This document shows positions 4,905 through 20,079 of a stretch of DNA of 64,000 bases, one piece after another (the stretch's first letter is position 1; every line of letters begins with the position of its first letter). Source of the stretch: an uncultured Bacilli bacterium (lineage in GTDB: Bacteria; Bacillota_I; Bacilli_A; RF39; UBA660); contig CAJUPN010000004.1 in assembly GCA_910588195.1 (NCBI GenBank), positions 88,290 through 152,289 on the forward strand. The letters run 5' to 3'. The position numbers and the translations under genes were made by a program. The notes beneath the pieces were generated by a model that did not search any database, was not told the DNA's origin, and worked only from the letters and a program-made list of their open reading frames with translations.

Positions 4905-6221
4905 ATGGGAAAAAAATATAAAATTGTAGTTTTTGCTTTAATATTATTTATTGGATTATTTATGCTAACACCTTTTGCTAAAGCTCTAGAAAATCAAGCA
5001 AAATCAATAAGAGATATTAGATTTTATACAGGAGCAAACAGTGAATCACCTTTCACAAAAATTGTTCTTACTTTAAATGATGATATAGTTGTAGATAAAT
5101 CTTATATTTTAATAAGTGATGAATCTACATCATTTATGATTTATACTTCAGATTTTAAAATTGTTGAAAATACAAATCCTGAAACAATTGAAGAATATAA
5201 TGCAGGAAAAAGTATAACTAACGAACAAATTTTAACTAAAGGTACTACCCTTTATTACTATAACAACAATGAAAATTTACTTAAGTCAGAAAAAGTAAAA
5301 ATAATTGTCGATTGGCGAAACAATAACAAGCAATACTTCTATGAAGAAATTGCCTATACTGTTAAAAGTGATGGATCTCAAGGAATAGAAAATATTAATC
5401 TAGAAGAAACTACAGAAAAAAGATTATTAAGAGATGAATTTTATGAAGCTGCTTTAAAAAAATATCCTTTTATAGTTTCCATCCAAAGCGATGAAACAGA
5501 AGTTACTTATGGCTACGAAATTAATAGTGCCCCTAATACAAAATATGCAATAATTGGAACATTCAGTTTTAAAGAAAAAACATTAGAACAATTATTAAAT
5601 GAACTAGATACATTAATAAATCAAGGAAAAGCTACTATAAATAATGATGATACTATTTTAAAAAATAATGAATTAGTTCAAATAAAAAACAACAAAGTAT
5701 TGACAACCTATGAAAAAATAGAAAATAATAACCTTCTTTATTCTTGGTCATTTGATGGAAATAAAATGACTGCCGATGATATAAAGCTTAATATTGATTT
5801 AAATTTAATACTTGGATTAACACCAAATAAAGACAAAATCGATGCCTTAATCCCAAGTAGTATTGCATCATTAAAACTAGATTTTCAACACAAAGGCAAT
5901 TTACCTCTTGGTACATCTTTAAAAGTTAATATTGGTTCCTCATTTAAAAATGATGATATATTAGATTTATACTATTATAATCCTGAAGCAAATAAACTTG
6001 AAAAAGTTGCTGAAAACATAATGGTTATTGATGGATTTGCTTCATTCCCAATTTCTCACTGTAGTGAATATGTATTAGTTTTAAATAAAGAAGCAAACAA
6101 AAATGCCGATAACAATGTACAAACATCATCTATGAATGTCATTTTATATACAATCATAACAATAGTTTGTGCTGGTGCCCTAGGTTATATTATAAAAAAC
6201 AAAAATAAGGAAATAGCCTAA
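4905..6221 (+). CDS. Cell-surface protein, probable sortase B substrate (C-terminal NVQTS-like signal, hydrophobic helix, basic tail)
   Basis: N-terminal signal peptide. C-terminus is ...NNVQTSSMNVILYTIITIVCAGALGYIIKNKNKEIA, which has the layout of a cell-wall sorting signal. Directly followed by a sortase gene. Confidence 0.6.
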   Translation: MGKKYKIVVFALILFIGLFMLTPFAKALENQAKSIRDIRFYTGANSESPFTKIVLTLNDDIVVDKSYILISDESTSFMIYTSDFKIVENTNPETIEEYNAGKSITNEQILTKGTTLYYYNNNENLLKSEKVKIIVDWRNNNKQYFYEEIAYTVKSDGSQGIENINLEETTEKRLLRDEFYEAALKKYPFIVSIQSDETEVTYGYEINSAPNTKYAIIGTFSFKEKTLEQLLNELDTLINQGKATINNDDTILKNNELVQIKNNKVLTTYEKIENNNLLYSWSFDGNKMTADDIKLNIDLNLILGLTPNKDKIDALIPSSIASLKLDFQHKGNLPLGTSLKVNIGSSFKNDDILDLYYYNPEANKLEKVAENIMVIDGFASFPISHCSEYVLVLNKEANKNADNNVQTSSMNVILYTIITIVCAGALGYIIKNKNKEIA

Positions 6222-6247
6222 AGCTATTTTCTTTAATTTAAGGAATT

Positions 6248-7006
6248 ATGTTAAAAAAAATTAAGAAAAAATTAACAATAAGAAATTTGCTTATCTTTTT
6301 ACTTTTAATAATATTTCTTTTTGCCATAACAAAAATATCACTTTTCTTCTATGACCTTCATATGAATGGAATAAAAACAAGAGCTTTAATTGATGATGTC
6401 TATGCTTCTTTCATCAATAAAGAGACAAATGAAGAAATAATAAAGATTGATTTTCCTAAACTATTATCAATAAATCGTGATACTGTTGGTTGGATAAAAG
6501 CAAATAATGGAAAAGTAAATTATCCAATTGTTCAAACAACAACTAATACATATTATTTAAACAAATCTTTTGATAAGACGTATAATCAAGCGGGTTCTAT
6601 TTTTATGGACTACCGTAATAGATCATCATTTCAAGATCGAAATGTTGTCTTATTTGGACACTCTATGCTTGATAAAACAATGTTTGGTTCTCTAAATGAT
6701 GTTTGGAAAAAAGACTTTTTCAATACTAAAGAAAATGGAATAATAAAAATAATTGATGCTAATAACAATCCTAGCACTTATGAAATATTTAGTTATTATA
6801 CTATTGATAAAGAAGAATATTATATAAAAACTAGTTTTTTATCAGATTCTGAATTTATCGAATTTTTAAACATTATAAAAAAAAGAAGTTTAAAAGACTT
6901 CAATATAAACTTAACTGAAAAAGATAAAATATTAACTTTATCCACTTGTGCTGGTACAGGTGGTACAAATAAACGAAAAGTAATTCATGCTAGAAAAATA
7001 AACTAA
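6248..7006 (+). CDS. srtB: Class B sortase
   Basis: 252 aa with an N-terminal membrane anchor. Catalytic TLSTC motif (LTLSTCAGTGG). Conserved His region (FGHSM). Confidence 0.8.
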   Translation: MLKKIKKKLTIRNLLIFLLLIIFLFAITKISLFFYDLHMNGIKTRALIDDVYASFINKETNEEIIKIDFPKLLSINRDTVGWIKANNGKVNYPIVQTTTNTYYLNKSFDKTYNQAGSIFMDYRNRSSFQDRNVVLFGHSMLDKTMFGSLNDVWKKDFFNTKENGIIKIIDANNNPSTYEIFSYYTIDKEEYYIKTSFLSDSEFIEFLNIIKKRSLKDFNINLTEKDKILTLSTCAGTGGTNKRKVIHARKIN

Positions 7007-7074
7007 AGACTTGCTAAAGTCTTTTTTTGTGGTATATTGTTTTATTTTGTCTATATAATTTATTAGGTGATTTA

Positions 7075-7399
7075 ATGTTATTTTTTATACATATTGTTAA
7101 TCTGCTTTCAATATTTATGGGATCTTATTCAATTAATGTCTTCCCAAATCCCTTATCAAAAGAAGAAGAAGCAGATCTTCTAAAAAAAATGCAAGATGGT
7201 GATAAACTAGCTCGTTCGAAACTTATTGAACACAATTTAAGACTTGTTGCTCACATTGTAAAAAAATTTGATTGTATTGAAAAAATGAATGATGATTTAA
7301 TAAGTATTGGTACAATCGGCTTAATCAAAGGAATAGATTCATTCAAAATAAATAAAAATAATAAACTTACAACCTATGTTGCCAGATGTATTGAAAATG
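7075..7399 (+). CDS. sigK: sigK 5' segment (spoIVCB-like): pro-sigma-K N-terminal half, interrupted by an intervening element
   Basis: AGGTGA RBS then ATG at 7075. Encodes a pro-sequence plus sigma region 2 (LIEHNLRLVAHIVKKF...LISIGTIGLIKGIDSF...TYVARCIEN), near-identical to B. subtilis SigK. The frame then reads through into unrelated sequence. Confidence 0.85.
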
Positions 7400-7614
7400 C
7401 AACATTCACCTGTTGGAAAGAATGCTTTTCATTTCTTTTATTAAAATATCTAAATCATTAGTATCTAATTCATAATTTTCAAGATATTTAGTTATTAATT
7501 CTAAATGTAAAAGAAGCAAATTATTTTGAAAATCAATATCATTTTTTGGCATTGATGTAATAACTTTCACACTATCACCTATAAAAATATATATTAAAAA
7601 AAAGAATTTTATAA

Positions 7615-9417
7615 CTATAAAACTCTTTTTTTCACTTTTGACTCTTCTTTATTATCTTCTTTTAAATCTTCGTCAGTTCTATCAACTTCTTGTGCTAGAT
7701 TATGGAATTTATTACCATTTTCAGCAATTTGTACCTTAAGCTCACCAGTTATACTATAATCGCTAGTCCAAGGAGCTTTAAATTCAACATAATCATTATT
7801 TCTAATTCCTCTATTTAAAACATCGTTAATAGCATTATAAATTGGTTCTTTCATTTCAAAATCATCACCATATTTAGAAATAACTCTTAAAACATCTTCC
7901 CAAACAACAAATTGACCTTCAGCAGATAAAACATCTATAACATTATCAGGGTATCTTGGATCTTCAAGTCTATTCGCTACAAGAGATGTAATACTTACAG
8001 CATCTTGATAAGAACCATTATACTCATGTTCAACAACATAATAAAGGGCTTTTAGTTCAAAATTAGTTAAAGTATATGTCGTATTATTAAAAGTTAAATG
8101 AAGTCCTCTAACAAGTTCTTCATTATCTTTACCCATAGAAATTTCTTCTGCCTTCATCTCTGTGTTCTCTTCTAATACCAAAGACCTATTTCCTTCTAAA
8201 ATACTTTGCGAATCAGCCATTAAGGCAACTGTTTTATTTTCAAAAGTCTGAACATTTACTGTAGCTAATGTTTCAGCTTCTAAATTATCATCACTTTTTA
8301 ATGTATCAACTTTTACTATTTCATAAGCATTTTCTGGAAAATTTTCACCAAAAGATTCATCTTCATATTCACTTGTTATAGAGTCTCCTATAATTGGTAA
8401 CTCATCACTAGATGACTTTCTTAATAAAAGTTTTCCTCCTTGTGCTACATTTAAAGATAATATATCAATATCACCTTGAGCTTTAAAAATTTTTAATTTC
8501 TCAACATCTGGTATACTTGTAATTGGCATACAAGCAATTGGAGAAACAAAATTACTTATTAAATTCTCCTGTGAAGAAACTGAAACAGCTACTACTCCTA
8601 AAGATAAAGACGCAATTGCTAAACTCTTCTTAAGAGCTAAGAAATCTTTATTTTCTACATTCTTTCCAAATTTAGAATATACCAAATTCTTAAATCTAGA
8701 AAACACACCTTTAGCTTTCAAATTAAATTTAGATAATCGATTTTCTTTTAACATATTTTTAGAAGCTTGACGATATCCTCTATAACACTTTATTAAAGTA
8801 TCAACATCCTTTTCATTAACGACATGATTTTTACTTAAAAATACTTCTTTTGGATTACAAAGTTCTTCACACATAATTAAAGAAGCTAATGTTGAATAAT
8901 ATGATATTAATTCTTCATTTGATAGATTTTTTAAATCTTCCTCGTTAATTTTATAACTAACTTCAACTTTCTCATTTAATACAGCTTTAATATATTCAAT
9001 TAACTTTTCTATTTCTCTACAAGAATTATAAAGCGATAAATACTTTTTATAATATTTTTCTGAGACACTTACACGATAATTTCCTTTAACAAAACTACGC
9101 TTTTTACCACTTTTTCTTTCCAAAAAAGACATATTTTCTTGATATAGTCGTTTTGTCTCATTTAAATAATCTACAATGTTTAATAAATCTTCATTTGAAT
9201 GAGCAATTTCTTCATCTATTGCAGTTGGATTATTAAGTTTTTCTTTCAGTTTTGCTATTGATTCATTAGTTGAATAAGATAACATTGAAAATAAATCACT
9301 TAAATTTTCATCTTGAGCTATCGCTATTTTTTCTTGTTGCTTAAGTATCAATTGTTCACTTCTTTTAGCAAGTATTTGTTGAATTTTTGTCTTTGTATTA
9401 TCTAACTCTTTAGTCAT
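7615..9417 (-). CDS. Membrane-anchored coiled-coil protein with a C-terminal SleB/CwlJ-type (Hydrolase_2) cell-wall hydrolase domain
   Basis: 600 aa. Central TM helix (LAIASLSLGVVAVSV). C-terminal ...YYVVEHEYNGSYQDAVSITSLVANRLEDPRYPDNVIDVLSAEGQFVVWED matches the cortex-lytic enzyme catalytic domain pattern. Confidence 0.6.
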   Translation of the reverse strand: MTKELDNTKTKIQQILAKRSEQLILKQQEKIAIAQDENLSDLFSMLSYSTNESIAKLKEKLNNPTAIDEEIAHSNEDLLNIVDYLNETKRLYQENMSFLERKSGKKRSFVKGNYRVSVSEKYYKKYLSLYNSCREIEKLIEYIKAVLNEKVEVSYKINEEDLKNLSNEELISYYSTLASLIMCEELCNPKEVFLSKNHVVNEKDVDTLIKCYRGYRQASKNMLKENRLSKFNLKAKGVFSRFKNLVYSKFGKNVENKDFLALKKSLAIASLSLGVVAVSVSSQENLISNFVSPIACMPITSIPDVEKLKIFKAQGDIDILSLNVAQGGKLLLRKSSSDELPIIGDSITSEYEDESFGENFPENAYEIVKVDTLKSDDNLEAETLATVNVQTFENKTVALMADSQSILEGNRSLVLEENTEMKAEEISMGKDNEELVRGLHLTFNNTTYTLTNFELKALYYVVEHEYNGSYQDAVSITSLVANRLEDPRYPDNVIDVLSAEGQFVVWEDVLRVISKYGDDFEMKEPIYNAINDVLNRGIRNNDYVEFKAPWTSDYSITGELKVQIAENGNKFHNLAQEVDRTDEDLKEDNKEESKVKKRVL

Positions 9418-9584
9418 TATTAAACACTCCCCTTCAATTTTTATTTCTGAGTATAAAATTACTCAGAACACACCTAATCAAAATACCATAAATTATAGTT
9501 TGTGTCAACCATTTTTGCGTCATTTTTCGGCACTTTTCCGCATATTTTCATTAGTTCCCTAGTATATAATAAAGAGGTGAAAAA

Positions 9585-11156
9585 GTGAACGATAAAAAGT
9601 ATGCTATATATTCTCGTAAATCGAAATATACAGGGAAAGGAGAAAGCACAACTAATCAAATAGAACTATGTCTAACAACCCTAAAAAACAAATTTCCAGA
9701 CATAAAAAAAGATGAAATATTAATCTATGAAGATGAAGGATTTTCAGGTTATAGCACCAATCGTCCTGCTTTTAAAAAGCTTTTAAAAGACATTGAAAAT
9801 AATAAAATAAAAATTCTCCTTTTTTATAAACTTGATCGAATAAGCAGAAACGTTAATGACTTCGCAAGATTAATGTCTCTCCTAGAAGCTCACGATGTTT
9901 CATTTCTATCAGCTACAGAAAATATTGAAACACTAACACCTAGTGGCAAAGCACTAACTTATATGATATCTGTTTTTGCTGAACTAGAAAGAAATACCAT
10001 AGCAGAAAGAATAAAAGATAATATGCTTGAACTTGCTAAATCAGGTGTTTGGCTTGGTGGAAATACTCCCACTGGTTATAGCTCAGTTGAAGAAATAAAA
10101 TTAATTAATAATAAAAAGAAAAAAACTTATTGTCTAAAAGAAAATGAGGATATCGAAAAAGTAGAACTAATCTTTAAAAACTATCTAAGACTTAAATCTT
10201 TAACAAAATTAGAGACATTCCTTTTAAATAAAAATATATTATCTATTAATTTAAAACCATACACTCGTTTTTCTTTAAAAAATATATTAACTAACCCTGT
10301 TTATGTAAAAAGTGATAAAGATATCTACAATTACTATGAGAATAAAGGAATAAATTTATATGGGGGTTCTTGGAATGGAATTAATGGCTTAATGGTTTAT
10401 AATAAAACAACTAATTTAAATCATAAAATATTAAAAAGAAAGAAAACAGAAGAATGGATTATAAGTGTCGGTAAACATAAAGGAATAATTGATGGGAAGA
10501 CATTTATAAATGTTGCAAATTTAATTGAAGCTAATAACAACATGCGATATCGTAAAACAAATTCTTTAAGAAGTCCCCTGTCAGGACTCGTAAAATGTGC
10601 TAATTGTAAATCTAACATGCGACCTAAAATAAGAAAGAATAAAGACAATGAAATCATCACTGACTATTTATGTGAATTAAAAGAAAAAAGCAAGAAGAAT
10701 TTATGTGATGCCAAAAACATAAATGGTTCAATCATTGAAGATACAATAATAAGTAATATAATGAACTTTGAAATAAATATGACTATTTTATTCAACAAAT
10801 TAAAAAAGACTCTCAAAACTGATAAAAATAGTGAAATAAAAGAAATTTCCTATAGAATAAAGAAAAATAATGAAACAATAAAAAATTTAATTGATAAAAT
10901 AAAATATATTGATATATCAATAATAGATGACATAAATAAAGAAATAAAAGAATTAAAAGAAGAAAATGCTATGTTAAACTCTAGATTAAATAAATTAAAT
11001 GCTAATTCTATAGATTTAAAAGACCTAGCCAATAAAACTATAAAGAATTATAAAAATATTAACAATTTAGATAATAAAACAAAGAAAAAATACTTACATT
11101 TATTAATAAAAGAAATCATAGCTTCAAATAATAAACTTATTATTAATTATAAATAA
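9585..11156 (+). CDS. Large serine recombinase (SpoIVCA-like) predicted to excise the sigK intervening element
   Basis: 523 aa. Resolvase catalytic domain (YSRKS...LDRISRN), recombinase domain, a Cys zinc ribbon (CANCKSN...C...C) and a C-terminal coiled coil. Sits inside the sigK-splitting element and ends 24 bp before the 3' sigK core. Confidence 0.9.
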   Translation: MNDKKYAIYSRKSKYTGKGESTTNQIELCLTTLKNKFPDIKKDEILIYEDEGFSGYSTNRPAFKKLLKDIENNKIKILLFYKLDRISRNVNDFARLMSLLEAHDVSFLSATENIETLTPSGKALTYMISVFAELERNTIAERIKDNMLELAKSGVWLGGNTPTGYSSVEEIKLINNKKKKTYCLKENEDIEKVELIFKNYLRLKSLTKLETFLLNKNILSINLKPYTRFSLKNILTNPVYVKSDKDIYNYYENKGINLYGGSWNGINGLMVYNKTTNLNHKILKRKKTEEWIISVGKHKGIIDGKTFINVANLIEANNNMRYRKTNSLRSPLSGLVKCANCKSNMRPKIRKNKDNEIITDYLCELKEKSKKNLCDAKNINGSIIEDTIISNIMNFEINMTILFNKLKKTLKTDKNSEIKEISYRIKKNNETIKNLIDKIKYIDISIIDDINKEIKELKEENAMLNSRLNKLNANSIDLKDLANKTIKNYKNINNLDNKTKKKYLHLLIKEIIASNNKLIINYK

Positions 11157-11179
11157 ACTTTCCAACAAGTTAGTATAGC

Positions 11180-11552
11180 AAATGAAATATTGATGTACTT
11201 TAGAAGTAATAAGAAAAACAACAATAATGTTTCTTTAAATGATTCAATTGGTTATGATAAAGATGGCAATGAAATAAATCTTATTGATGTCATCAAATCC
11301 AATAATACTGAATTAACAGAATTTCTTCACAATAAAGATAATTTAGACAAATTAAATAAATATTTAAGTGTTCTAAACGAAAGAGAAAAAGAAATAATTA
11401 TAAAAAGATACGGTCTTTTTGATAATGATGAATTTACTCAAAAAGAAATATCAGAATATTTAAATATTTCAAGATCCTATGTTTCAAGAATTGAAAAAAG
11501 AGCTATAACTAAGCTCTTCCGAGAATTTAAACGTGACGGTGGAGAATTTTAA
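11180..11552 (+). CDS. sigK: sigK 3' segment (spoIIIC-like): regions 3-4 of sigma-K
   Basis: Encodes ...ILMYFRSNKK...VSLNDSIGYDKDGNEINLIDVIKS...ISRSYVSRIEKRAITKLFREF, which matches the B. subtilis SigK C-terminal half. The frame is open back to the AAATG core. Confidence 0.85.
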
Positions 11553-11936: not shown

Positions 11937-12365
11937 TTAAGACTTAATAACTTCATACTCAACAGTTTTAACTTTTGACAAATCAGCATCTGTTAAAGCC
12001 TCAATATGCTTTTTTTCGCCACTTTTTAAAGTAGAACCAACATACCCAAGCAATTTAACTATTTCATTATTTTGATCATCTTTAAAAATAATATTAATAT
12101 ACGAAATATTTATATCATCTTTTGCATTTATTTCTGCTTCATACTTCATTAAACTATCTTCTTCTTTAATATTTATTGATGAAATAATAACATTATCAAT
12201 TTCTACATTCTTTAGTTCATAGCCATAAAAAACATTTAAAGTATTTGTAGAAAATGTTACTTTAAAAAGTATTGTTGACAAAGAGACTAATACAAAAGCA
12301 AATACTCCTATACCAATAGCTTTTTGTTTAAAATTTAATTCTTTAATTCTATTTAGTAAATTCAT
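11937..12365 (-). CDS. Small membrane-anchored protein, co-oriented with and abutting the giant surface protein gene
   Basis: 142 aa. N-terminal TM helix followed by a predicted beta-rich domain. Start lies 3 bp after the upstream gene's stop. Confidence 0.4.
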   Translation of the reverse strand: MNLLNRIKELNFKQKAIGIGVFAFVLVSLSTILFKVTFSTNTLNVFYGYELKNVEIDNVIISSINIKEEDSLMKYEAEINAKDDINISYINIIFKDDQNNEIVKLLGYVGSTLKSGEKKHIEALTDADLSKVKTVEYEVIKS

Positions 12366-12367
12366 AG

Positions 12368-15300
12368 TTAATCTACCTCCATTGAAGTTATTTCTTCTTT
12401 TTTCTTTATAATAATTTGTTTACTTTCAGATCCACAAACTAATTTATATGAACCAGTCTCTAAATCCTTTATATTTTTATAATATCTATCATCTATTAAG
12501 CATTCAGTCGGTATTAAATAGTCATCACCTTGGTAAAATTCTAAAATACTAGACTCTTTTTCTGAAATAATTTTAGTAACTGTTAAACTTGCTACTGATA
12601 ATATATTATCTGAAGATCTAGTTCTAGCAATTATAGTTAAATTTTTGTCTATTTTAATAGGTTCTTTATAAAGTATCCAAGTTTGTCCTAAATCTAAACT
12701 ATATTCATTAATAAATCCTGATGGATAATCAATGGTTATCTCTTTAGTTGAAGATAATTCAAAAGAATCCATATGGAACTTTGGTGCTTGAACAGTGTTT
12801 ACATCAATAAGTTCACTGTAACCCATACTGGTTGGTTGAAGTGCAATTTGAGTAACTGTGACTGTTCCATTTCCAGCTGAACAATCACCATAAACACAAG
12901 CATTCTCATATTCAGATCCACCTTTTACACTTATAACACCAAGTTGATCTATTCCAGTATTTTGGTTAGTAAATATATTAATACTTCCTCCACCAGAACC
13001 TCCACCTCCTGATGTTCCATATCCACCTCTTGCTCCATTAGCTGTTAGCTTTCCATTGTTTTTGTATTCATTTGCATATAAAACTAGAAGTCCTCCCGTT
13101 CCATTACTTCCATATCTTATCTTATCTTGACCAGGTGTTCCTCCTCCAGGATTTCCGGCTCCTCCACCCCATCCTTGATATCCTCCGCCACCTTGGCCTC
13201 CAATATCTGATGCTGGTGGATTTGCCTTGTATGAACCTCCTGATCCTCCAGAATATGATGTTCCTTTTCCTCCTTGACTGGTATTTAGACTTGCTGTTCC
13301 TCCAGCTCCGCCTCCTCCAGTCTGTCGTCCAATTCCATCCATTCCTTTTGTTTTTGATGTTGTTTCTGATGAACCTCCTTCAGCTCCTAATGCTGGTACA
13401 TATTCATATGTTCCATCTGCATTCTTCCACAAGTATACATCTTGTCCTTCAGCTTTGGCTCCATGGGAATTATCTATTGTTCCATTATTCTCTAACTTCC
13501 CAGTTACATACATTGTAAATCCTTTTGGTCCTCCATATAATTCATCATAATATGGTCTTACTGTTACTCCTTCTTCTATTGTTACATTTCCCTTGACCTT
13601 TACCACTACCATGTTTCGTGCATTATCATTCTTTGTTGCTACATCTCCTGCATCTCCAAATATTTGATCACTACTCCATCTTTGGTCTCCTTCTATTACA
13701 TACATATGCACTGGGTATTCTTCATTATTTACTTTGAAGAACCAATACCCACTTCTTATATCTTCATTAATAATTGATAAAATACTATCTCCTGTTTTAG
13801 TTACAGAATTTTTGTATGCTTCTTTGTCCTGTTCAATTATCTCTTTTAAATCATAATAAGTTCCGTTTCGAACCTCTCCAATATTTATTGTTCCATCTCC
13901 TGCGGAACAATCACCATATGGGCACATATTATCATACTCTGGACCACCAATAGTTTTTGAAATACCTAGAATTTCATTATACCTAGTATTAGTTATAACA
14001 CCAAGTTGATCTATTCCAGTATTTTGGTTAGTAAATATATTAATACTTCCTCCACCAGAACCTCCACCTCCTGATGTTCCATATCCACCTCTTGCTCCAT
14101 TAGCTGTTAGCTTTCCATTGTTTTTGTATTCATTTGCATATAAAACTAGAAGTCCTCCCGTTCCATTACTTCCATATCTTATCTTATCTTGACCAGGTGT
14201 TCCTCCTCCAGGATTTCCGGCTCCTCCACCCCATCCTTGATATCCTCCGCCACCTTGGCCTCCAATATCTGATGCTGGTGGATTTGCCTTGTATGAACCT
14301 CCTGATCCTCCAGAATATGATGTTCCTTTTCCTCCTTGACTGGTATTTAGACTTGCTGTTCCTCCAGCTCCGCCTCCTCCAGTCTGTCGTCCAATTCCAT
14401 CCATTCCTTTTGTTTTTGATGTTGTTTCTGATGAACCTCCTTCAGCTCCTAATGCTGGTACATATTCATATGTTCCATCTGCATTCTTCCACAAGTATAC
14501 ATCTTGTCCTTCAGCTTTGGCTCCATGGGAATTATCTATTGTTCCATTATTCTCTAACTTCCCAGTTACATACATTGTAAATCCTTTTGGTCCTCCATAT
14601 AATTCATCATAATATGGTCTTACTGTTACTCCTTCTTCTATTGTTACATTTCCCTTGACCTTTACCACTACCATGTTTCGTGCATTATCATTCTTTGTTG
14701 CTACATCTCCTGCATCTCCAAATATTTGATCACTACTCCATCTTTGATCTCCTTCTATTACATACATATGCACTGGGTAAATAACGCTGGTGCCCAACAC
14801 TTCAAAATCATAATAACCTGATTTTAAATCTTTTGTTTCTATTATGTCTAATATACTATTACCTTTTACTGTTATATTTGTTACTTTAATATCCTTACTT
14901 ACCTGTGCAGTTAGCCCAGCACCTGTTGTTATTTCACAAGTCAAAGTATATTCTCCTACTGGTAAACTACTTGAATTTGTATACTCTACATCACTATTAG
15001 GAACTTTGCAGACCCTATTTGATCCACTTATTCCATCAGTATAACTAGTTGGTATTACATATTCTAGATCTTTAGAAAAAATACTAGGTAAACCATCTAA
15101 ACTAATAGTTGGAATTGTTTTATCAATTTTTGAAACCGTAAACGAAGCAGCAACCTTTATGTTATCACCGTCAACAACTCTTGCAACAACAATTGTATTA
15201 TTTTCAGTTATCTTTAATGGTTGTTCATATAATTCCCAAGACTCGCCTAAATCTAAACTATATTGATAACTATAGCCATTATAAACATCTCTTGGATAAC

Positions 15301-18300
15301 TAATAGTTAATTCTTTTTCCGTTGCCCATCCTTCATTATCTAATATATATGAAATATCTCCGATATCAGTTGTAGTAACACTTAACTGATAAGCATCTGA
15401 TATGTTGCCAGCTTTATCGGTTACTTTTATATAAACTTGATATTCTTTATTATTTTTTAATTTATTAAAAGTATATACATTATTTTTAGAAGTTATATAT
15501 TCTTCCCCATCTAAAGAATACATATAAGTATCTACTTTACTACTTTGATCTTCTGCTAAAACTTCTATAGTAAAATTACTCGACCCTTTTTCTAAAATAT
15601 TTACATCTATTATTTCTGGTTTTATCACATCAATATTAGTAATTCTTTTACTAGCTATTTCACTTTGAATTTCTACATCATTAATAGATTTAGCATATAT
15701 CGTAGCATCTTCTTTAGAAATCTTAATTGGATTTTTATAATCTAGCCAATCAGTTTCTTCTCCATCACTGTAAATAATTTTATAAAGTTTTTCTACACTT
15801 ACCTTATCATAATTAATTGCAACAGTAACTTCTTTTGTCCATTCCTCTGTTGATAAAATAAATGTTGGTGTATTAGGTTTTGCTAAATCCCATCTCATAA
15901 ATATATTTTCAGATAATTCTGATAAAGGCACATCTAAAACATAATAATCATCTTTTATAATTATTTCTTTGCCATTTTCATCTTTTATTTTTACTCCATC
16001 AGATCCAATAACTTTATCTTTGTATTCTGGTCTAATTAAGACAATCCCATGGGGGTTATATTTTTTCCATTCACCATCTTTTTTCCATTTATACTCACGA
16101 TCACTTGGATTAGACATAGTCGGATAATTTAGTTTTATTAAATAATACATTCCATTATCTAAAATCGTTAAATTATCTTTTGGTATTATATTATCTACTA
16201 ATATCTCACTTTCTCCATAATGTCCTAACGAATCTTCATTATAGGCACTTATTCTTGTATTATTAGTAATTAACTCAATTGGACCAAAATAATCAAGCCA
16301 CTCACCATCATCAAGTTTATATTTTTTTATACTTGCAGTATTAGCATATTCAATTTCAACTCTAACCCATGGGGATGGTGTTGTTGGATTTATTCTAATT
16401 AAAGGATTAGAGATACCAGTTGTTAAATAATTAACTTGCTTACTAGTTTCACCTAAACCTTTTGTATTTAAAGCATAAGCATAAACGGTTGTATTCTCAT
16501 TTATTTCAAATGGTCCATTATATTCTCTTAAGTCTCCATTCCCAATTCTATAGTATCTTCCTGTTGCTCTTTCATCATATAAAATACTAACCTCTAACTT
16601 ATCAATTAGACCTTGAACTTCATTTTCTTCTGGCGATAAAGTAATTGCTACATCTAATTTTTCTAAAGGAATTGGAGCAATTGAAGTTGTAATATTTAAT
16701 TTTTCAATTGTTATCCCATTTTTATTAGTACCCTTTGCATAAATACTTTTACTTTGATTTATTTGGATTGGTCGTTCATATCTAAAATACTCTATTCCAT
16801 TAAAAGAATATTCTAAAGTATCATAGTCACTTCCACTTATAGTAACTATTACAGAATCAATATCTTCATTCAAATAAATACTTGGACTAGCATCTATTTT
16901 TACATAAGGTTTATTGGGTTGTTTAATATTTTGAACATAATAATAAGTTACTTCTGATTTCTTATCATTCTTATTTATATAGTAAGATCTTATAATTGAG
17001 TTTTTTAAAACTTCAAAGGTATTAACATATTCCTGATAAGATCCACCATCTACACTGTAGTAAATATTTTTTGCTTCTTCCTTTGTTTTAATATCTACTG
17101 TTACCTTCTCAGTTAGAGTAGTTGGCGAAACAGATATTACTGGTCCTTCTAATCTATCAGATAAAGATACTGCTTCTATATATTTTACATCATAAGCATA
17201 TTTTCCTTTATATTCTGCTTTAGCATATATGAATGTGTTAGCACTAACTTCAAACGAATTTGTATACAAAGTATAATTTTTATTGTCTAAACTATAATAT
17301 ATTTTTGAATTAGCTTCATTACTTACTATACTTATAGTCGCTTTTTGCCCTTTTAAAAGTCGATTATGAGATGAATTAATATTTACATGCAAGTAATTTT
17401 CATCTGGATTATCTCCTCCTTCTGGATTGCCTTCACCACTTTTAAAAATTGTCTTTTGTGATCTACCAACAGCCTTTCCTGTTCTTTTTACTCCATTATC
17501 TAAATCAATTGTTCTCTCACTTTCAGCATAAGCATATACAGTTGAGTTAGCACTCACTACAAATGAACCGGTATAATCAAGCCATGCAGAATCATCAACT
17601 TTATACATTCTAACTATAGCATCATCTTCATAATCAATGCTTACATTAGTTTTTTCATTTAAATATTCTTTATCTGGATTAATATCTATCCTAACACTAC
17701 CAAAATTAAGTGAACTTTCACCCTTTTCACTTATGTAAAGAGCATCTTCACCAACTAATGTTTTTTGCATTATAACATTTCCTTCAGCATCATAAACATT
17801 TTCTTCTTTAGTTGCCCTAGCTTCAATTAAAGTATCAGCACCAACACTAAATTCTTTTTCGTACTGAATCCAATTTCCACCATTTATACGATATTCCTTA
17901 GTTTTAGCATTTTTATCATAAGTTATTTTTACATTAGTTATTTCTTCACCACTTAAAGTCATCTTGTCAGCTGATATATCAACTAAGACTTTGCCATTAG
18001 GAACATCTATTACTTTTTCTCCATCAAGATCATAACGTATATAAATATTACCTATATCACTAACCTTAACTAAAATTGGTCCAGTATAACTTTCCCAATC
18101 ATCATCTTCGCCACGGATTTCACCTTCTCTATGTAATCTCCACTCACGATTAGTTGAACCAACTGGATAATAAATATTTAATCTTATCCATCCATCCCAT
18201 TCTTCATCTTCACCATTTGGAACAATAACTTTTATATCCTTACTTACCTCAGCATAAGTTCCTGTATTAGATATAGCCTTACAACTAACCGTATATTCTC

Positions 18301-19567
18301 CTACAGCAAAATCCTCAGTTGATGAAACATTTTTACTCCAATCATGATCTAAAGCACATGAATAATTACCACCTGATGGACCAAATTCAACATGACTTGG
18401 AAGTTGATATTTTTCACCATATTCAAAAACTGCTGGTAAATCTATTAAATCAATTTTTGGTATTTCTAATTCTGGTTTAATAGGTTTTGTTGTATTAGTT
18501 GGTTTAACTGTTATTGTCTGCTCAGTAGAACTAACTGGCTTTGTTGTTGTAGACTTATCACCAGAGGAAGTTGTTGTCGTTTTAATAGGTTTTGTTGTAT
18601 TATTCTCTTCATCTAAATTTCCTGTTGGCTTAGTTTTATCTGGATTTGAATCTGGATAAACAGTCGTCCCATTGTTATAATTCGGATTATCTATCTCACT
18701 CTTATTAGTTGTATTTTCCGTATTTGAATTATCATTATTATCTTCAGAATTTGATACCCCATTATTAAAATTAGAAGTTCTTTCTGTAAATGTAACTTCA
18801 TAACTATTTAAAGCATTATCAAAAACCTTTATTGTTATCGTATATTCTGTATTTTCTTCTAAATTCTTTATAACAAAATTATTCTTTACTTCAACATACT
18901 CTTTATTGCCTATTTTATAATAATAATTTTTTATTCCCGAATCTTTGTCCCTTGCTTTAACATTTATATTAAAAGAATTAGCTGTAACACTTTTAGTAAT
19001 TGAATCAATAATTGGTGAAATATTATCAATAAGTACTTCTTCTTTGTTCGAAATAAATGAATATTTTCCATTTTTATATTTACCCTTAAAGAAAACATTC
19101 CATTTGCCTGTTTCCGCTATTTCTATACTCTTTTCTTGAGTTTCTTTCCAATCACATTTCTTACTAGATTTATTCTCAGTTACACAGTACATATAACTTT
19201 CTAACTCACTTACATCCACATCTTTTTTTACATATACTATATTACTCTTTACCCATCCATCTTCTTTACTTTCAATCAATGGACGATTATTTGTTATTAT
19301 TGATGATATACCAATATTTATAAACATCAAAAGAATCAACACTATAAAAAACAAAAGGAAAGGAAATAACCATAATTTAGAAACATAAACAGTTACTTCA
19401 TCACTGTTTTTTATCTCGCTTCCCTCTTCTGGTTCAGTTCTAATAACTCTTCCTCTTCTAATAAATAAACTAAATTCTTTTTCTTCTTTATAGTTTATCT
19501 TCTCTTTATCTAAAATCTCTTTTGCATCTTCAAATTTTTCTTTTTTTAAAACAGGTACTATTTTCAT
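12368..19567 (-). CDS. Giant (2399 aa) membrane-anchored surface protein with N-terminal PASTA-like domain, TM helix, FN3-like and chitobiase/hexosaminidase C-terminal-like repeats, and duplicated Gly-rich beta-helix-like modules
   Basis: Single uninterrupted frame with an AGGAG RBS. One TM helix at about residues 65-90. Many ...IYYSxDG...Y-type repeat domains. Two glycine-rich modules (GGGGAGGTASLNTSQGGKGTSYSGGSGG...). Confidence 0.8.
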   Translation of the reverse strand: MKIVPVLKKEKFEDAKEILDKEKINYKEEKEFSLFIRRGRVIRTEPEEGSEIKNSDEVTVYVSKLWLFPFLLFFIVLILLMFINIGISSIITNNRPLIESKEDGWVKSNIVYVKKDVDVSELESYMYCVTENKSSKKCDWKETQEKSIEIAETGKWNVFFKGKYKNGKYSFISNKEEVLIDNISPIIDSITKSVTANSFNINVKARDKDSGIKNYYYKIGNKEYVEVKNNFVIKNLEENTEYTITIKVFDNALNSYEVTFTERTSNFNNGVSNSEDNNDNSNTENTTNKSEIDNPNYNNGTTVYPDSNPDKTKPTGNLDEENNTTKPIKTTTTSSGDKSTTTKPVSSTEQTITVKPTNTTKPIKPELEIPKIDLIDLPAVFEYGEKYQLPSHVEFGPSGGNYSCALDHDWSKNVSSTEDFAVGEYTVSCKAISNTGTYAEVSKDIKVIVPNGEDEEWDGWIRLNIYYPVGSTNREWRLHREGEIRGEDDDWESYTGPILVKVSDIGNIYIRYDLDGEKVIDVPNGKVLVDISADKMTLSGEEITNVKITYDKNAKTKEYRINGGNWIQYEKEFSVGADTLIEARATKEENVYDAEGNVIMQKTLVGEDALYISEKGESSLNFGSVRIDINPDKEYLNEKTNVSIDYEDDAIVRMYKVDDSAWLDYTGSFVVSANSTVYAYAESERTIDLDNGVKRTGKAVGRSQKTIFKSGEGNPEGGDNPDENYLHVNINSSHNRLLKGQKATISIVSNEANSKIYYSLDNKNYTLYTNSFEVSANTFIYAKAEYKGKYAYDVKYIEAVSLSDRLEGPVISVSPTTLTEKVTVDIKTKEEAKNIYYSVDGGSYQEYVNTFEVLKNSIIRSYYINKNDKKSEVTYYYVQNIKQPNKPYVKIDASPSIYLNEDIDSVIVTISGSDYDTLEYSFNGIEYFRYERPIQINQSKSIYAKGTNKNGITIEKLNITTSIAPIPLEKLDVAITLSPEENEVQGLIDKLEVSILYDERATGRYYRIGNGDLREYNGPFEINENTTVYAYALNTKGLGETSKQVNYLTTGISNPLIRINPTTPSPWVRVEIEYANTASIKKYKLDDGEWLDYFGPIELITNNTRISAYNEDSLGHYGESEILVDNIIPKDNLTILDNGMYYLIKLNYPTMSNPSDREYKWKKDGEWKKYNPHGIVLIRPEYKDKVIGSDGVKIKDENGKEIIIKDDYYVLDVPLSELSENIFMRWDLAKPNTPTFILSTEEWTKEVTVAINYDKVSVEKLYKIIYSDGEETDWLDYKNPIKISKEDATIYAKSINDVEIQSEIASKRITNIDVIKPEIIDVNILEKGSSNFTIEVLAEDQSSKVDTYMYSLDGEEYITSKNNVYTFNKLKNNKEYQVYIKVTDKAGNISDAYQLSVTTTDIGDISYILDNEGWATEKELTISYPRDVYNGYSYQYSLDLGESWELYEQPLKITENNTIVVARVVDGDNIKVAASFTVSKIDKTIPTISLDGLPSIFSKDLEYVIPTSYTDGISGSNRVCKVPNSDVEYTNSSSLPVGEYTLTCEITTGAGLTAQVSKDIKVTNITVKGNSILDIIETKDLKSGYYDFEVLGTSVIYPVHMYVIEGDQRWSSDQIFGDAGDVATKNDNARNMVVVKVKGNVTIEEGVTVRPYYDELYGGPKGFTMYVTGKLENNGTIDNSHGAKAEGQDVYLWKNADGTYEYVPALGAEGGSSETTSKTKGMDGIGRQTGGGGAGGTASLNTSQGGKGTSYSGGSGGSYKANPPASDIGGQGGGGYQGWGGGAGNPGGGTPGQDKIRYGSNGTGGLLVLYANEYKNNGKLTANGARGGYGTSGGGGSGGGSINIFTNQNTGIDQLGVITNTRYNEILGISKTIGGPEYDNMCPYGDCSAGDGTINIGEVRNGTYYDLKEIIEQDKEAYKNSVTKTGDSILSIINEDIRSGYWFFKVNNEEYPVHMYVIEGDQRWSSDQIFGDAGDVATKNDNARNMVVVKVKGNVTIEEGVTVRPYYDELYGGPKGFTMYVTGKLENNGTIDNSHGAKAEGQDVYLWKNADGTYEYVPALGAEGGSSETTSKTKGMDGIGRQTGGGGAGGTASLNTSQGGKGTSYSGGSGGSYKANPPASDIGGQGGGGYQGWGGGAGNPGGGTPGQDKIRYGSNGTGGLLVLYANEYKNNGKLTANGARGGYGTSGGGGSGGGSINIFTNQNTGIDQLGVISVKGGSEYENACVYGDCSAGNGTVTVTQIALQPTSMGYSELIDVNTVQAPKFHMDSFELSSTKEITIDYPSGFINEYSLDLGQTWILYKEPIKIDKNLTIIARTRSSDNILSVASLTVTKIISEKESSILEFYQGDDYLIPTECLIDDRYYKNIKDLETGSYKLVCGSESKQIIIKKKEEITSMEVD
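12931..13717. repeat. 787-bp direct repeat, copy 1, inside the giant surface protein gene (encodes the C-proximal Gly-rich module)
   Basis: Essentially identical to 13993..14779 (offset 1062 bp, one mismatch seen). Produces identical antisense ORFs at 13072..13518 and 14134..14580. Confidence 0.9.
13993..14779. repeat. 787-bp direct repeat, copy 2, inside the giant surface protein gene
   Basis: Same as above. Separated from copy 1 by about 275 bp of unique sequence. Confidence 0.9.
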
Positions 19568-19986
19568 CTTTAATCTACTCCTACTATCCTATTTATTATC
19601 TTTTACATTTCTGATTTTATTATTACATGATGGCAAATAAAGTAAATTAAAAAATTTTTACATCTTAAAATATTCAATAAAAGCTCTTATCATTAAATAC
19701 AATATAACTTATGTTAGCATTTTTTTCAAGATATATACTAAAGATATTAACTTTTTTTCTAATTTTTTTAATTTAGAAAAATATTTATTCTAAAAAAAAT
19801 CATCTCTGTGGCATTAATGAGATCTAAAAAGCAATAACAATAAACTTGTAAAAAAGCCCTTTTTATGTTATTATGAATGTGTCAAGGAAACTTGCATAAA
19901 ATAAAAAAGGGAACATTCAGTTTTTGCTTAGTTGAATGTCTACCCAATTATTTGTGAAGACATTTAATTCAATGATGAATTAAGTG

Positions 19987-20079
19987 TCATTTTTTTATTA
20001 CTACTATCATAATGATAAAGAGAAATAAAATGATAGCAATGAGCTTAAGAACTTTAATTATAAAAGTCTTAGTTTTCAT
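19987..20079 (-). CDS. Putative 30-aa hydrophobic peptide (MKTKTFIIKVLKLIAIILFLFIIMIVVIKK)
   Basis: Near-perfect RBS GAGAGGAGG 9 nt upstream of the ATG. Single TM helix with a basic C-terminus. Confidence 0.3.
   Translation of the reverse strand: MKTKTFIIKVLKLIAIILFLFIIMIVVIKK

Follow-up and report, generated by a model that had tools for sequence, protein, structure and literature searches.

How did two segments of 787 nt within a single gene come to differ at only one base? The question is raised by a 64,000-nt stretch of DNA from an uncultured Bacilli bacterium (contig CAJUPN010000004.1, positions 88,290 to 152,289), here called the window, whose minus strand holds a 7,200-nt open reading frame (ORF) with an ATG start (12368..19567) encoding a protein of 2399 amino acids (aa). 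The two segments, at 12931-13717 and 13993-14779, form the cores of two glycine-rich (Gly-rich) modules of this giant protein. It is well supported, subject to confirmation by long reads, that the two-module layout is old and that the identity of the cores is secondary, reflecting recent homogenisation. Gene conversion within that old pair, accompanied now and then by the loss of a period, is well supported under the same proviso. As a whole, the gene product is probably a fibrillar surface protein, made by an uncultured gut 'Bacilli' bacterium that forms spores and has a low GC content; it would combine the old two-module layout with a gene-converted core, one-period losses and a module that serves as a binding head.

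A 787-nt match with one mismatch cannot have arisen by chance within 64 kb. The lone mismatch (G at window position 13685, A at 14747) lies 32 nt inside the 5' edge of the repeat and is synonymous, reading on the coding strand as GAT (Asp1607) in copy 1 and GAC (Asp1961) in copy 2. The repeat period is 1062 nt, or 354 codons. The amino-acid cores are 100% identical and the whole modules 90% identical; at both edges of the repeat the DNA identity falls sharply to background, and the flanks are still homologous in protein (~50% identity). A sequence-only reading of this DNA had described the ORF, the two copies and their single difference, leaving the strand unstated; all of these were confirmed, as were the peptides that it quoted (YPVHMYVIEGDQRW..., GIDQLGVI and GGGGAGGTASLNTSQGGKGTSYSGGSGG), which are located at aa 1597-1858 and 1951-2212. 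The G+C content rises from 26.7% in the window to 31% in the giant gene and 40.5% in the repeat core. Two identical 148-aa ORFs on the plus strand (13072-13518 and 14134-14580) were rejected as genes, being antisense mirrors within the repeats and a by-product of sequence rich in Gly codons.

The module pair and its connector

The features of the giant gene are listed here in coding order, with the evidence for each in brackets.

12368..19567, minus strand: giant ORF, 2399 aa (ORF list and translation; exact protein on at least 23 contigs)
19376..19561, minus strand: PASTA domain, aa 3-64, N-terminal and ahead of the membrane anchor (Pfam PF03793, 36.7 bits, above the gathering cutoff of 23.2)
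19292..19375, minus strand: sole transmembrane helix, aa ~65-92, signal-anchor (hydropathy scan)
18785..19060, minus strand: first Fn3/OmpL47-type barrel, aa 170-261, paralog of aa 1302-1398 (domain scans and self-alignment)
18458..18784, minus strand: low-complexity linker rich in N, T, S, K and P, ~100 aa (aa ~262-370) (sequence)
16235..17995, minus strand: stalk of diverged CHB_HEX_C/Fn3_assoc-like immunoglobulin (Ig) repeats, aa ~525-1111, mutual identity 24-42% (Pfam and self-alignment)
15374..15664, minus strand: second OmpL47-type barrel, aa 1302-1398 (NCBIfam NF047446, E 5e-31)
13793..14878, minus strand: Gly-rich module 1, long form, aa 1564-1925 (AlphaFold, homologs, conservation map)
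13993..14779, minus strand: identical core copy 1, aa 1597-1858 (DNA comparison)
13718..13992, minus strand: unique 275-nt connector, made up of the module 1 cap and the module 2 lead, aa 1859-1950 (self-alignment, orthologs)
12931..13717, minus strand: identical core copy 2, aa 1951-2212 (DNA comparison)
12845..13807, minus strand: Gly-rich module 2, short terminal form, aa 1921-2241 (self-alignment)
12434..12778, minus strand: C-terminal CHB_HEX_C-like and Cys-pair domains, aa 2264-2378 (self-alignment)

A tandem duplication made in one step leaves the whole period identical. Here the identical tract is shorter than the period, and the 275 nt that remain are only distantly homologous. The leads of the two modules (GNSILDIIETKDLKSGYYDF and GDSILSIINEDIRSGYWFF) are homologous at ~50% identity, as are their Cys-containing cap segments (GGPEYDNMCPYGDCSAGDGT and GGSEYENACVYGDCSAGNGT). 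Moreover, the connector (...YYDLKEIIEQDKEAYKNS..GDSILSI..SGYWFFKVNNEE) is recognisable in orthologs including P0126 and P0134, whose modules are ~60% identical to those of the window. Throughout the multi-module relatives, internal modules are of the long form with a cap-helix connector, and the last module is of the short form. Because the connector is diverged yet conserved in distant two-module orthologs, the layout was judged to be old. The sequence-only reading had offered very recent duplication or ongoing gene conversion; the second is the better alternative, and the first does not hold against the short tract and the old connector.

Module 1 consists of a lead, a strand-rich N half, a region of Gly motifs and variable segments, a cap and a connector helix. 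The bounds of module 2 come from self-alignment and overlap module 1 by 5 residues. The C-terminal domains (aa 2264-2378) are paralogous to aa 1407-1544, a segment just ahead of module 1. The transmembrane helix is the only strongly hydrophobic segment of the protein, and all 12 cysteines lie C-terminal to it, arranged as six close pairs. Since the cysteine pairs all follow the helix and are accompanied by Ig-like domains, everything past the anchor is probably extracellular, and the linker would span the cell wall. No LPXTG motif was found in the giant protein. The earlier description of a giant surface protein is thus supported by the single transmembrane helix, the Fn3/OmpL47 and CHB_HEX_C-type Ig-like repeats and the Cys pairs beyond the helix.

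The N-terminus is less usual. PASTA domains are normally extracellular. In this protein the PASTA domain precedes the sole transmembrane helix (19292-19561, aa 3-92) and would be cytoplasmic if the Ig-rich part with the Cys pairs is outside. PASTA-like N-termini were also seen, by eye, in the distant orthologs P0128, P0132, P0133, P0134 and P0136, and a member of the protein's cluster, derived from a metagenome-assembled genome (MAG), is named 'PASTA domain-containing protein [Bacilli bacterium]' at NCBI.

Homogenisation, copy number and assembly

Interior variants at this locus are found in both copies. Relative to the window, the loci L001 and L004 carry T>C at core offset 515 twice, once per copy, and K1815Q and K2169Q, which affect the same residue one period apart, are found together in P0229 and P0233. 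Across the family, modules of one protein are 75-100% identical, whereas modules of different proteins do not exceed 70%. In seven independent proteins (P0126, P0128, P0132, P0133, P0134, P0137 and P0138) a 100%-identical central block, which always takes in the Gly-rich region, stands beside diverged leads. DNA identity between tandem modules, compared in species-representative MAGs, forms a continuum from ~69 to 98.5%:

L011: 98.5% over 755 nt
L009 (three copies): 98.3% over 1997 nt
L025: 98.0% over 738 nt
L028: 97.9% over 756 nt
L012: 96.0% over 753 nt
L010: 94.8% over 807 nt
Other MAG loci: down to ~69%

In the mechanism proposed, homologous recombination between the two modules would recently have overwritten one 787-bp core with the other, leaving both heads the same. 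Unequal recombination between the identical cores would then remove exactly one 354-codon period and give rise to one-module alleles. The same homogenisation would recur across the module family.

The Gly-rich half may also move between strains. The Logan contig L005 (SRR13251493) carries one module, divergent from those of the window. Its identity to the window is 97-100% across the left flank and up to core offset ~300, 45-78% from there to ~100 nt past the core, and 92-98% thereafter. This sharp mosaic indicates block replacement of the Gly-rich half among closely related strains. The 505 homologs of the module include no donor with a comparable Gly-rich half (best full-length match 50-57% identity), and tblastn found no second module paralog in the window. 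A diversity-generating retroelement was not supported as the source, as the L005 differences include indels and replacement of a whole segment; no reverse-transcriptase domain was found among 16 neighbouring proteins scanned.

Public assemblies hold the gene in two lengths. At least 23 contigs, assembled independently, encode exactly the same 2399-aa protein, and two-module alleles (2399 or 2400 aa) total ~38 contigs when four near-identical variants are counted. In all five two-copy sequences compared (the window and L001-L004), offset 32 is T in copy 1 and C in copy 2. Alleles of 2045 aa were found on 7-8 contigs, including one NCBI MAG and three Logan contigs of different runs. One of them, P0231, is the window protein without aa 1597-1950 and otherwise unchanged; P0232 has the same deletion together with K2169Q. 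At the DNA level the one-copy alleles fall into three haplotypes:

L086: C at offset 32, C at offset 515
L087: T at offset 32, T at offset 515
L088 and L089: C at offset 32, T at offset 515

In favour of real deletions, the three Logan contigs run through the core, and L086 joins the copy-1 flank to the copy-2 base. From the way in which they are built, unitig-based contigs should be unable to cross a repeat node with two ways in and two ways out. Polymorphism of one versus two copies is likely but unproven: the comparison among strains that the sequence-only reading had proposed recovers both alleles, in assemblies that appear to be short-read and may have collapsed the repeat. Relatives carry 2, 3, 4 and 5-6 tandem modules.

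The same reading had warned that assemblers can collapse or expand such repeats, and the 2045-aa alleles with a one-period deletion make this a real issue here. Short-read assemblers build a repeat longer than k once and traverse it twice, giving one consensus. The related assemblies look like short-read metagenome assemblies, and the same may hold for the window. Several points weigh against homogenisation and one-period loss. Identical interiors, 'shared' variants and one-copy alleles can all be produced by assembly without biology, and the sole retained difference lies 32 nt from the edge, where k-mers can phase. Furthermore, two of the three one-copy haplotypes have the copy-2 base C at offset 32 beside the copy-1 flank. 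The crossover behind them must fall within the first 32 of 787 nt (4%), which is unexpected under uniform crossing-over; the pattern fits bubble-popping or an unsampled two-copy parent with C in both copies. The true copies could differ at a few more sites, not much above ~1%. Since copies 1.5-5% apart were resolved in related MAGs, the divergence of the window copies is small, but the exact value of 1/787 is unproven.

It is nevertheless unlikely that the pattern is largely an assembly effect, in which the genome has two similar modules, graph collapse or bubble popping exaggerates the identity of their interiors, and the 2045-aa alleles are collapsed assemblies and not real deletions. Such an effect accounts for the position of the only retained difference, for the presence of each interior variant in both copies and for one-copy contigs with either base at offset 32. 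However, the two-copy form, recovered in ~38 contigs, depends on four separate junctions and on a connector that is in frame and conserved; the resolution of 1.5-5% diverged copies in related MAGs again indicates that true divergence is small. The three Logan contigs, which end where the graph branches (each begins at window position 19902), nonetheless cross the core, and the copy-1 flank with a copy-2 base in L086 is not expected from collapse of a T/C genome at k>33. Importation is another, improbable, route to the same sequence: an allelic replacement by homologous recombination would have brought in a Gly-rich half, connector, N half and second Gly-rich half from another strain or a paralog in which the cores were already identical, so that this lineage inherited the identity and did not generate it. 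The sharp mosaic against L005 and the presence of several paralogous module genes per genome (6 loci in one MAG) agree with this. On the other side, no donor appeared among the homologs, copy 2 has exactly the same N half, of resident type, as copy 1, and an import merely shifts the homogenisation step to the donor.

Least probable is a very recent duplication in one step, with no time for the copies to diverge. Their near-perfect identity would be explained, the close relative L005 does have a single module, and near-identical triplication of a whole unit occurs elsewhere (L009, 98.3% over 1997 nt). Yet 275 of the 1062 nt of the period are only distantly homologous to the flanks, and the finding that would refute such an event, connector and lead sequences of the same age as the orthologs, has already been made, the connector being conserved in distant two-module orthologs. 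The L009 locus (6996-10006 of CAKPFM010000006.1, a Hadza gut MAG) holds three whole modules with their connectors at 96.6-98.3% DNA identity and a period of ~1005 nt. Unlike the window, where identity is confined to the core, this locus is a genuine and recent expansion of the entire unit, in a different species. As the same gene is deposited in 2399-aa and 2045-aa versions, repeat-aware or long-read checks are needed before copy number is read from MAGs.

The module family and a putative binding head

The module, ~350 aa long, has no match in Pfam, NCBIfam or PHROG scans even at E<=10. PDB sequence searches with a single sequence or a profile also gave no module match, returning only type IV pilins through the N-termini of homologs. 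The family comprises 505 homologs at E<=1e-3, from a search that gave no protein of 600 aa or more and missed the 2399-aa query itself, though it is present in the collection; the long multi-module relatives surfaced only in an exhaustive search of cluster representatives. Further counts are 753 cluster representatives and 212 loci in species-representative genomes, with up to six module loci in one MAG. All listed records are MAGs or other assemblies of uncultured bacteria, labelled Bacilli, 'Tenericutes', Clostridia or similar, and the named sample sources are Hadza human gut, rabbit, water-deer gut and mouse gut.

In members of 450-600 aa the module lies C-terminal to one of three kinds of N-terminus: prepilin-type (PF07963; GFTLIE or KGITLIALV), TasA/SipW-type (PF12389) or a plain membrane anchor. 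Two such single-module genes were examined and stand alone among housekeeping genes; membership of a pilus operon was rejected for the homologs on this ground. Phage origin was likewise rejected, given the chromosomal housekeeping neighbours and the near-absence of the module from viral collections: tblastn found no match in 50,697 phage genomes, and IMG/VR (2.9 M contigs) gave only 3 weak matches. A literature search on the features of the module found no description of it. Surface proteins are known to vary in length and in antigen through identical tandem domains. Homogenised tandem surface repeats are already familiar; the module is an undescribed domain, and the family-wide homogenisation of its variable half is noteworthy.

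Structure prediction of the Gly-rich module, which the sequence-only reading had suggested, was run on module 1 with a 61-sequence alignment. The AlphaFold model is confident (predicted local distance difference test score, pLDDT, 94.1; predicted template-modelling score, pTM, 0.93). In it a small N-terminal subdomain is followed by short strands every ~27-35 residues, at NMVVVKVKGNVTIEEGVTV, GFTMYVTGKLENNGTID, QDVYLWKN..YEYV, GLLVLYANEYKNNGKLTANG, SINIFTNQ and GTINIGEV, and the long C-terminal helix corresponds to the connector. A Gly-rich stretch of ~100 residues (positions 141-240; position 1 is aa 1564) has no DSSP secondary structure at pLDDT 79-98. Foldseek found no fold match in the PDB below E 0.7, and the best beta-helix-like hits, sought as solved right-handed parallel beta-helices of the pectate-lyase or autotransporter-passenger type, were HpmA 5kkd_B (E 2.5, TMq 0.22) and MinC-C (E 4.8). 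Matches in BFVD to giant-virus 'collagen-like', Gp38 and 'glycine-rich' proteins (E 1e-7 to 1e-3) were set aside as compositional (template-modelling (TM) score ~0.3, root-mean-square deviation 9-18 Å). The earlier proposal of a parallel beta-helix or fibre-like domain is unproven: the confident model has regularly spaced short strands, and no solved beta-helix matches it. Given the recurrence of strands, some kind of solenoid is possible.

A conservation map of 162 modules, numbered one higher than the model, shows a strongly conserved, strand-rich N half followed by six Gly motifs (R.TGGGG.G, GTSYSGG.GGG, GG.GG, GGAGNP.G, GTGGLLIIY and GG.SGGGSINIF). The segments between these motifs are high in entropy, rich in indels and variable in length. 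Seven residues (D58, K98, N110, N132, E138, R164 and S189) are invariant across the 61 sequences.

These features suggest that the module is an extracellular ligand-binding head, in which the strand-rich half and the Gly motifs would form a scaffold and the variable segments a specificity surface. Homogenisation would then lead to multivalent display of one strain-specific binding surface, and this surface would evolve by recombination before being copied to all heads of the same protein. We infer an adhesive head as the best and most economical reading because the module is distal on three kinds of scaffold, its Gly motifs alternate with variable segments, its Gly-rich half is replaced as a block and its copies are homogenised within a protein. 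Two further points count against this reading. The head function rests on position and variability, with no solved adhesin fold matching the model, and the position of the PASTA domain before the transmembrane helix, atypical for PASTA proteins, is unexplained. Pfam and NCBIfam scans of the giant protein and the module found no known adhesive-domain family.

Rather than a host or ligand adhesin, the module could be a homophilic self-recognition surface for strain-specific aggregation, or an enzyme; either is rather unlikely. The residues invariant across 61 sequences speak for this alternative, and hypervariability between strains combined with identity within a protein is expected of kin-recognition surfaces. 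No catalytic family or motif was found in Pfam, NCBIfam or PDB, which argues against an enzyme, and homophilic and heterophilic binding are not separated by the present data. On the preferred reading as a ligand-binding head, the homogenised unit is the probable binding head and not the stalk, and it belongs to a domain family that Pfam, NCBIfam, PHROGs and PDB sequences do not cover. Should the heads recognise ligands of the host or of microbes, the family would be a major adhesin repertoire of uncultured gut Firmicutes that has gone unstudied, and it would illustrate cleanly how, in nature, concerted evolution shapes a specificity surface.

Gene neighbourhood and known systems

The neighbours of the giant gene are chromosomal: an LtaS-like sulfatase, VanZ, a cyclophilin and a split sigK. 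The gene immediately downstream is the following.

11937..12365, minus strand: 142-aa membrane-anchored ORF (N-terminal transmembrane helix; weak FxLYD-like domain, E 0.006)

This ORF starts 2 nt past the stop of the giant gene, with a GGAGG within the end of the latter, and is kept beside the giant gene in all related loci; it may be a partner or assembly factor of the giant protein. Further along, a skin-like element, very small at ~3.8 kb (about 7402-11185), splits the sigK gene (7027-11552). The N-part of sigK (ORF 7027-7461) covers positions 6-114 of the 235-position SigK profile and its C-part (11190-11552) positions 116-231, and ...ARCIEN|EILMYFR is regained when the two junctions are joined again. 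Only two ORFs occupy the insert: a large serine recombinase (9585-11156), whose protein occurs on 383 contigs, and a 600-aa ORF (7615-9417, minus strand) whose C-terminus is weakly SleB-like (Hydrolase_2). In the region 4905-7006, a 438-aa ORF without a family match is directly followed by a class B sortase (6248-7006; TIGR03064, E 3e-63), of which it may be the substrate.

Upstream of the giant gene, the MAG GCA_949064485.1 (L001, 1-4520) differs from window position 20048 onward, carrying mraW-ftsL and a PBP with PASTA domains, not LtaS-VanZ. A hydrophobic mini-ORF of 31 aa (19985-20078, minus strand), with a terminator-like hairpin after it, contains the break. The three Logan contigs all begin nearby, at window position 19902 (region 19902-20078). 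The difference is either a rearrangement or a chimeric contig.

Several known systems resemble the giant protein in part. Type IV pilin-like proteins share the prepilin motif with many single-module homologs (PF07963), but not with the window protein, whose N-terminus is a PASTA domain and a transmembrane helix without the prepilin cleavage/methylation motif (G-F-T-L-I-E). The ALK/LTK glycine-rich domain (PF12810) is likewise extracellular and rich in Gly runs, with a confident structure and a Gly region lacking DSSP structure. However, Pfam gave no such match for the module at E<=10 or for the whole protein at E<=1, and the homolog P0081 carries PF12810 as a separate extra domain. Fibrillar adhesins combine a stalk, an adhesive domain and an anchor (PMC8286594, PMC9210967). 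The window protein has a transmembrane anchor, a long Ig-like/Fn3-like stalk and a distinct distal module; it differs in that the putative adhesive module belongs to no known adhesive family, is duplicated and is followed by two further small domains.

The closest class is that of the Periscope Proteins (SasG/Aap, Rib and the SHIRT arrays of Sgo_0707), in which near-identical tandem domains undergo intragenic recombination and length varies among strains (Whelan et al., 2021; PMC8201768). Like them, the giant protein is a large surface protein of Gram-positive type with tandem folded domains of very high DNA identity that permit intragenic recombination; the two modules exceed the ~80% identity of Periscope-type domains, with near-identical DNA. 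Repeat number also differs, being 1 or 2 in window-type alleles (likely, though unproven) and up to 6 in relatives. In Periscope Proteins it is the stalk that consists of identical repeats, holding a ligand-binding domain at the N-terminus away from a wall anchor at the C-terminus (PMC8201768). This defining geometry is not that of the window protein, where the anchor is an N-terminal transmembrane helix, the Ig repeats of the stalk are diverged (24-42%), and the identical units are large (354 aa), Gly-rich and distal, with only the core homogenised.

The organisation of the module itself is closest to gp38, the tail-fibre adhesin of T-even and S16 phages, which alternates Gly-rich motifs with hypervariable segments (PMC12032242, PMC3157838). 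In gp38 the motifs assemble into a polyglycine-II sandwich, the receptor is bound by hypervariable loops, and recombination hotspots have been proposed at the motifs (PMC12032242). The module similarly has a strand-rich part followed by conserved Gly motifs alternating with hypervariable segments; its variable part is swapped between close relatives, and its Gly motifs are plausible recombination sites. On the other hand, gp38 was the top PDB Foldseek match at a non-significant level (E 0.71, TM score 0.11-0.15), so that the fold of 6f45 and 9v85 is not recovered. There is no sequence match, and the module is cellular, ~100 aa larger, tandemly arrayed and absent from the phage genomes searched. 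By sequence and Foldseek it is a member of neither the gp38 nor the ALK glycine-rich family. By analogy, it is put forward as a speculative possibility that the module is a cellular counterpart of gp38-type heads, with hypervariable specificity loops on a scaffold of Gly motifs, interchangeable on type IV pilins, TasA-like fibres and giant membrane-anchored stalks in uncultured gut Bacilli and Clostridia, and with a Gly-rich cassette that is swapped between strains or paralogs and then gene-converted onto all modules of the protein. If so, each cell would carry a multivalent, strain-specific surface for binding or self-recognition that could be re-tuned in one recombination step.

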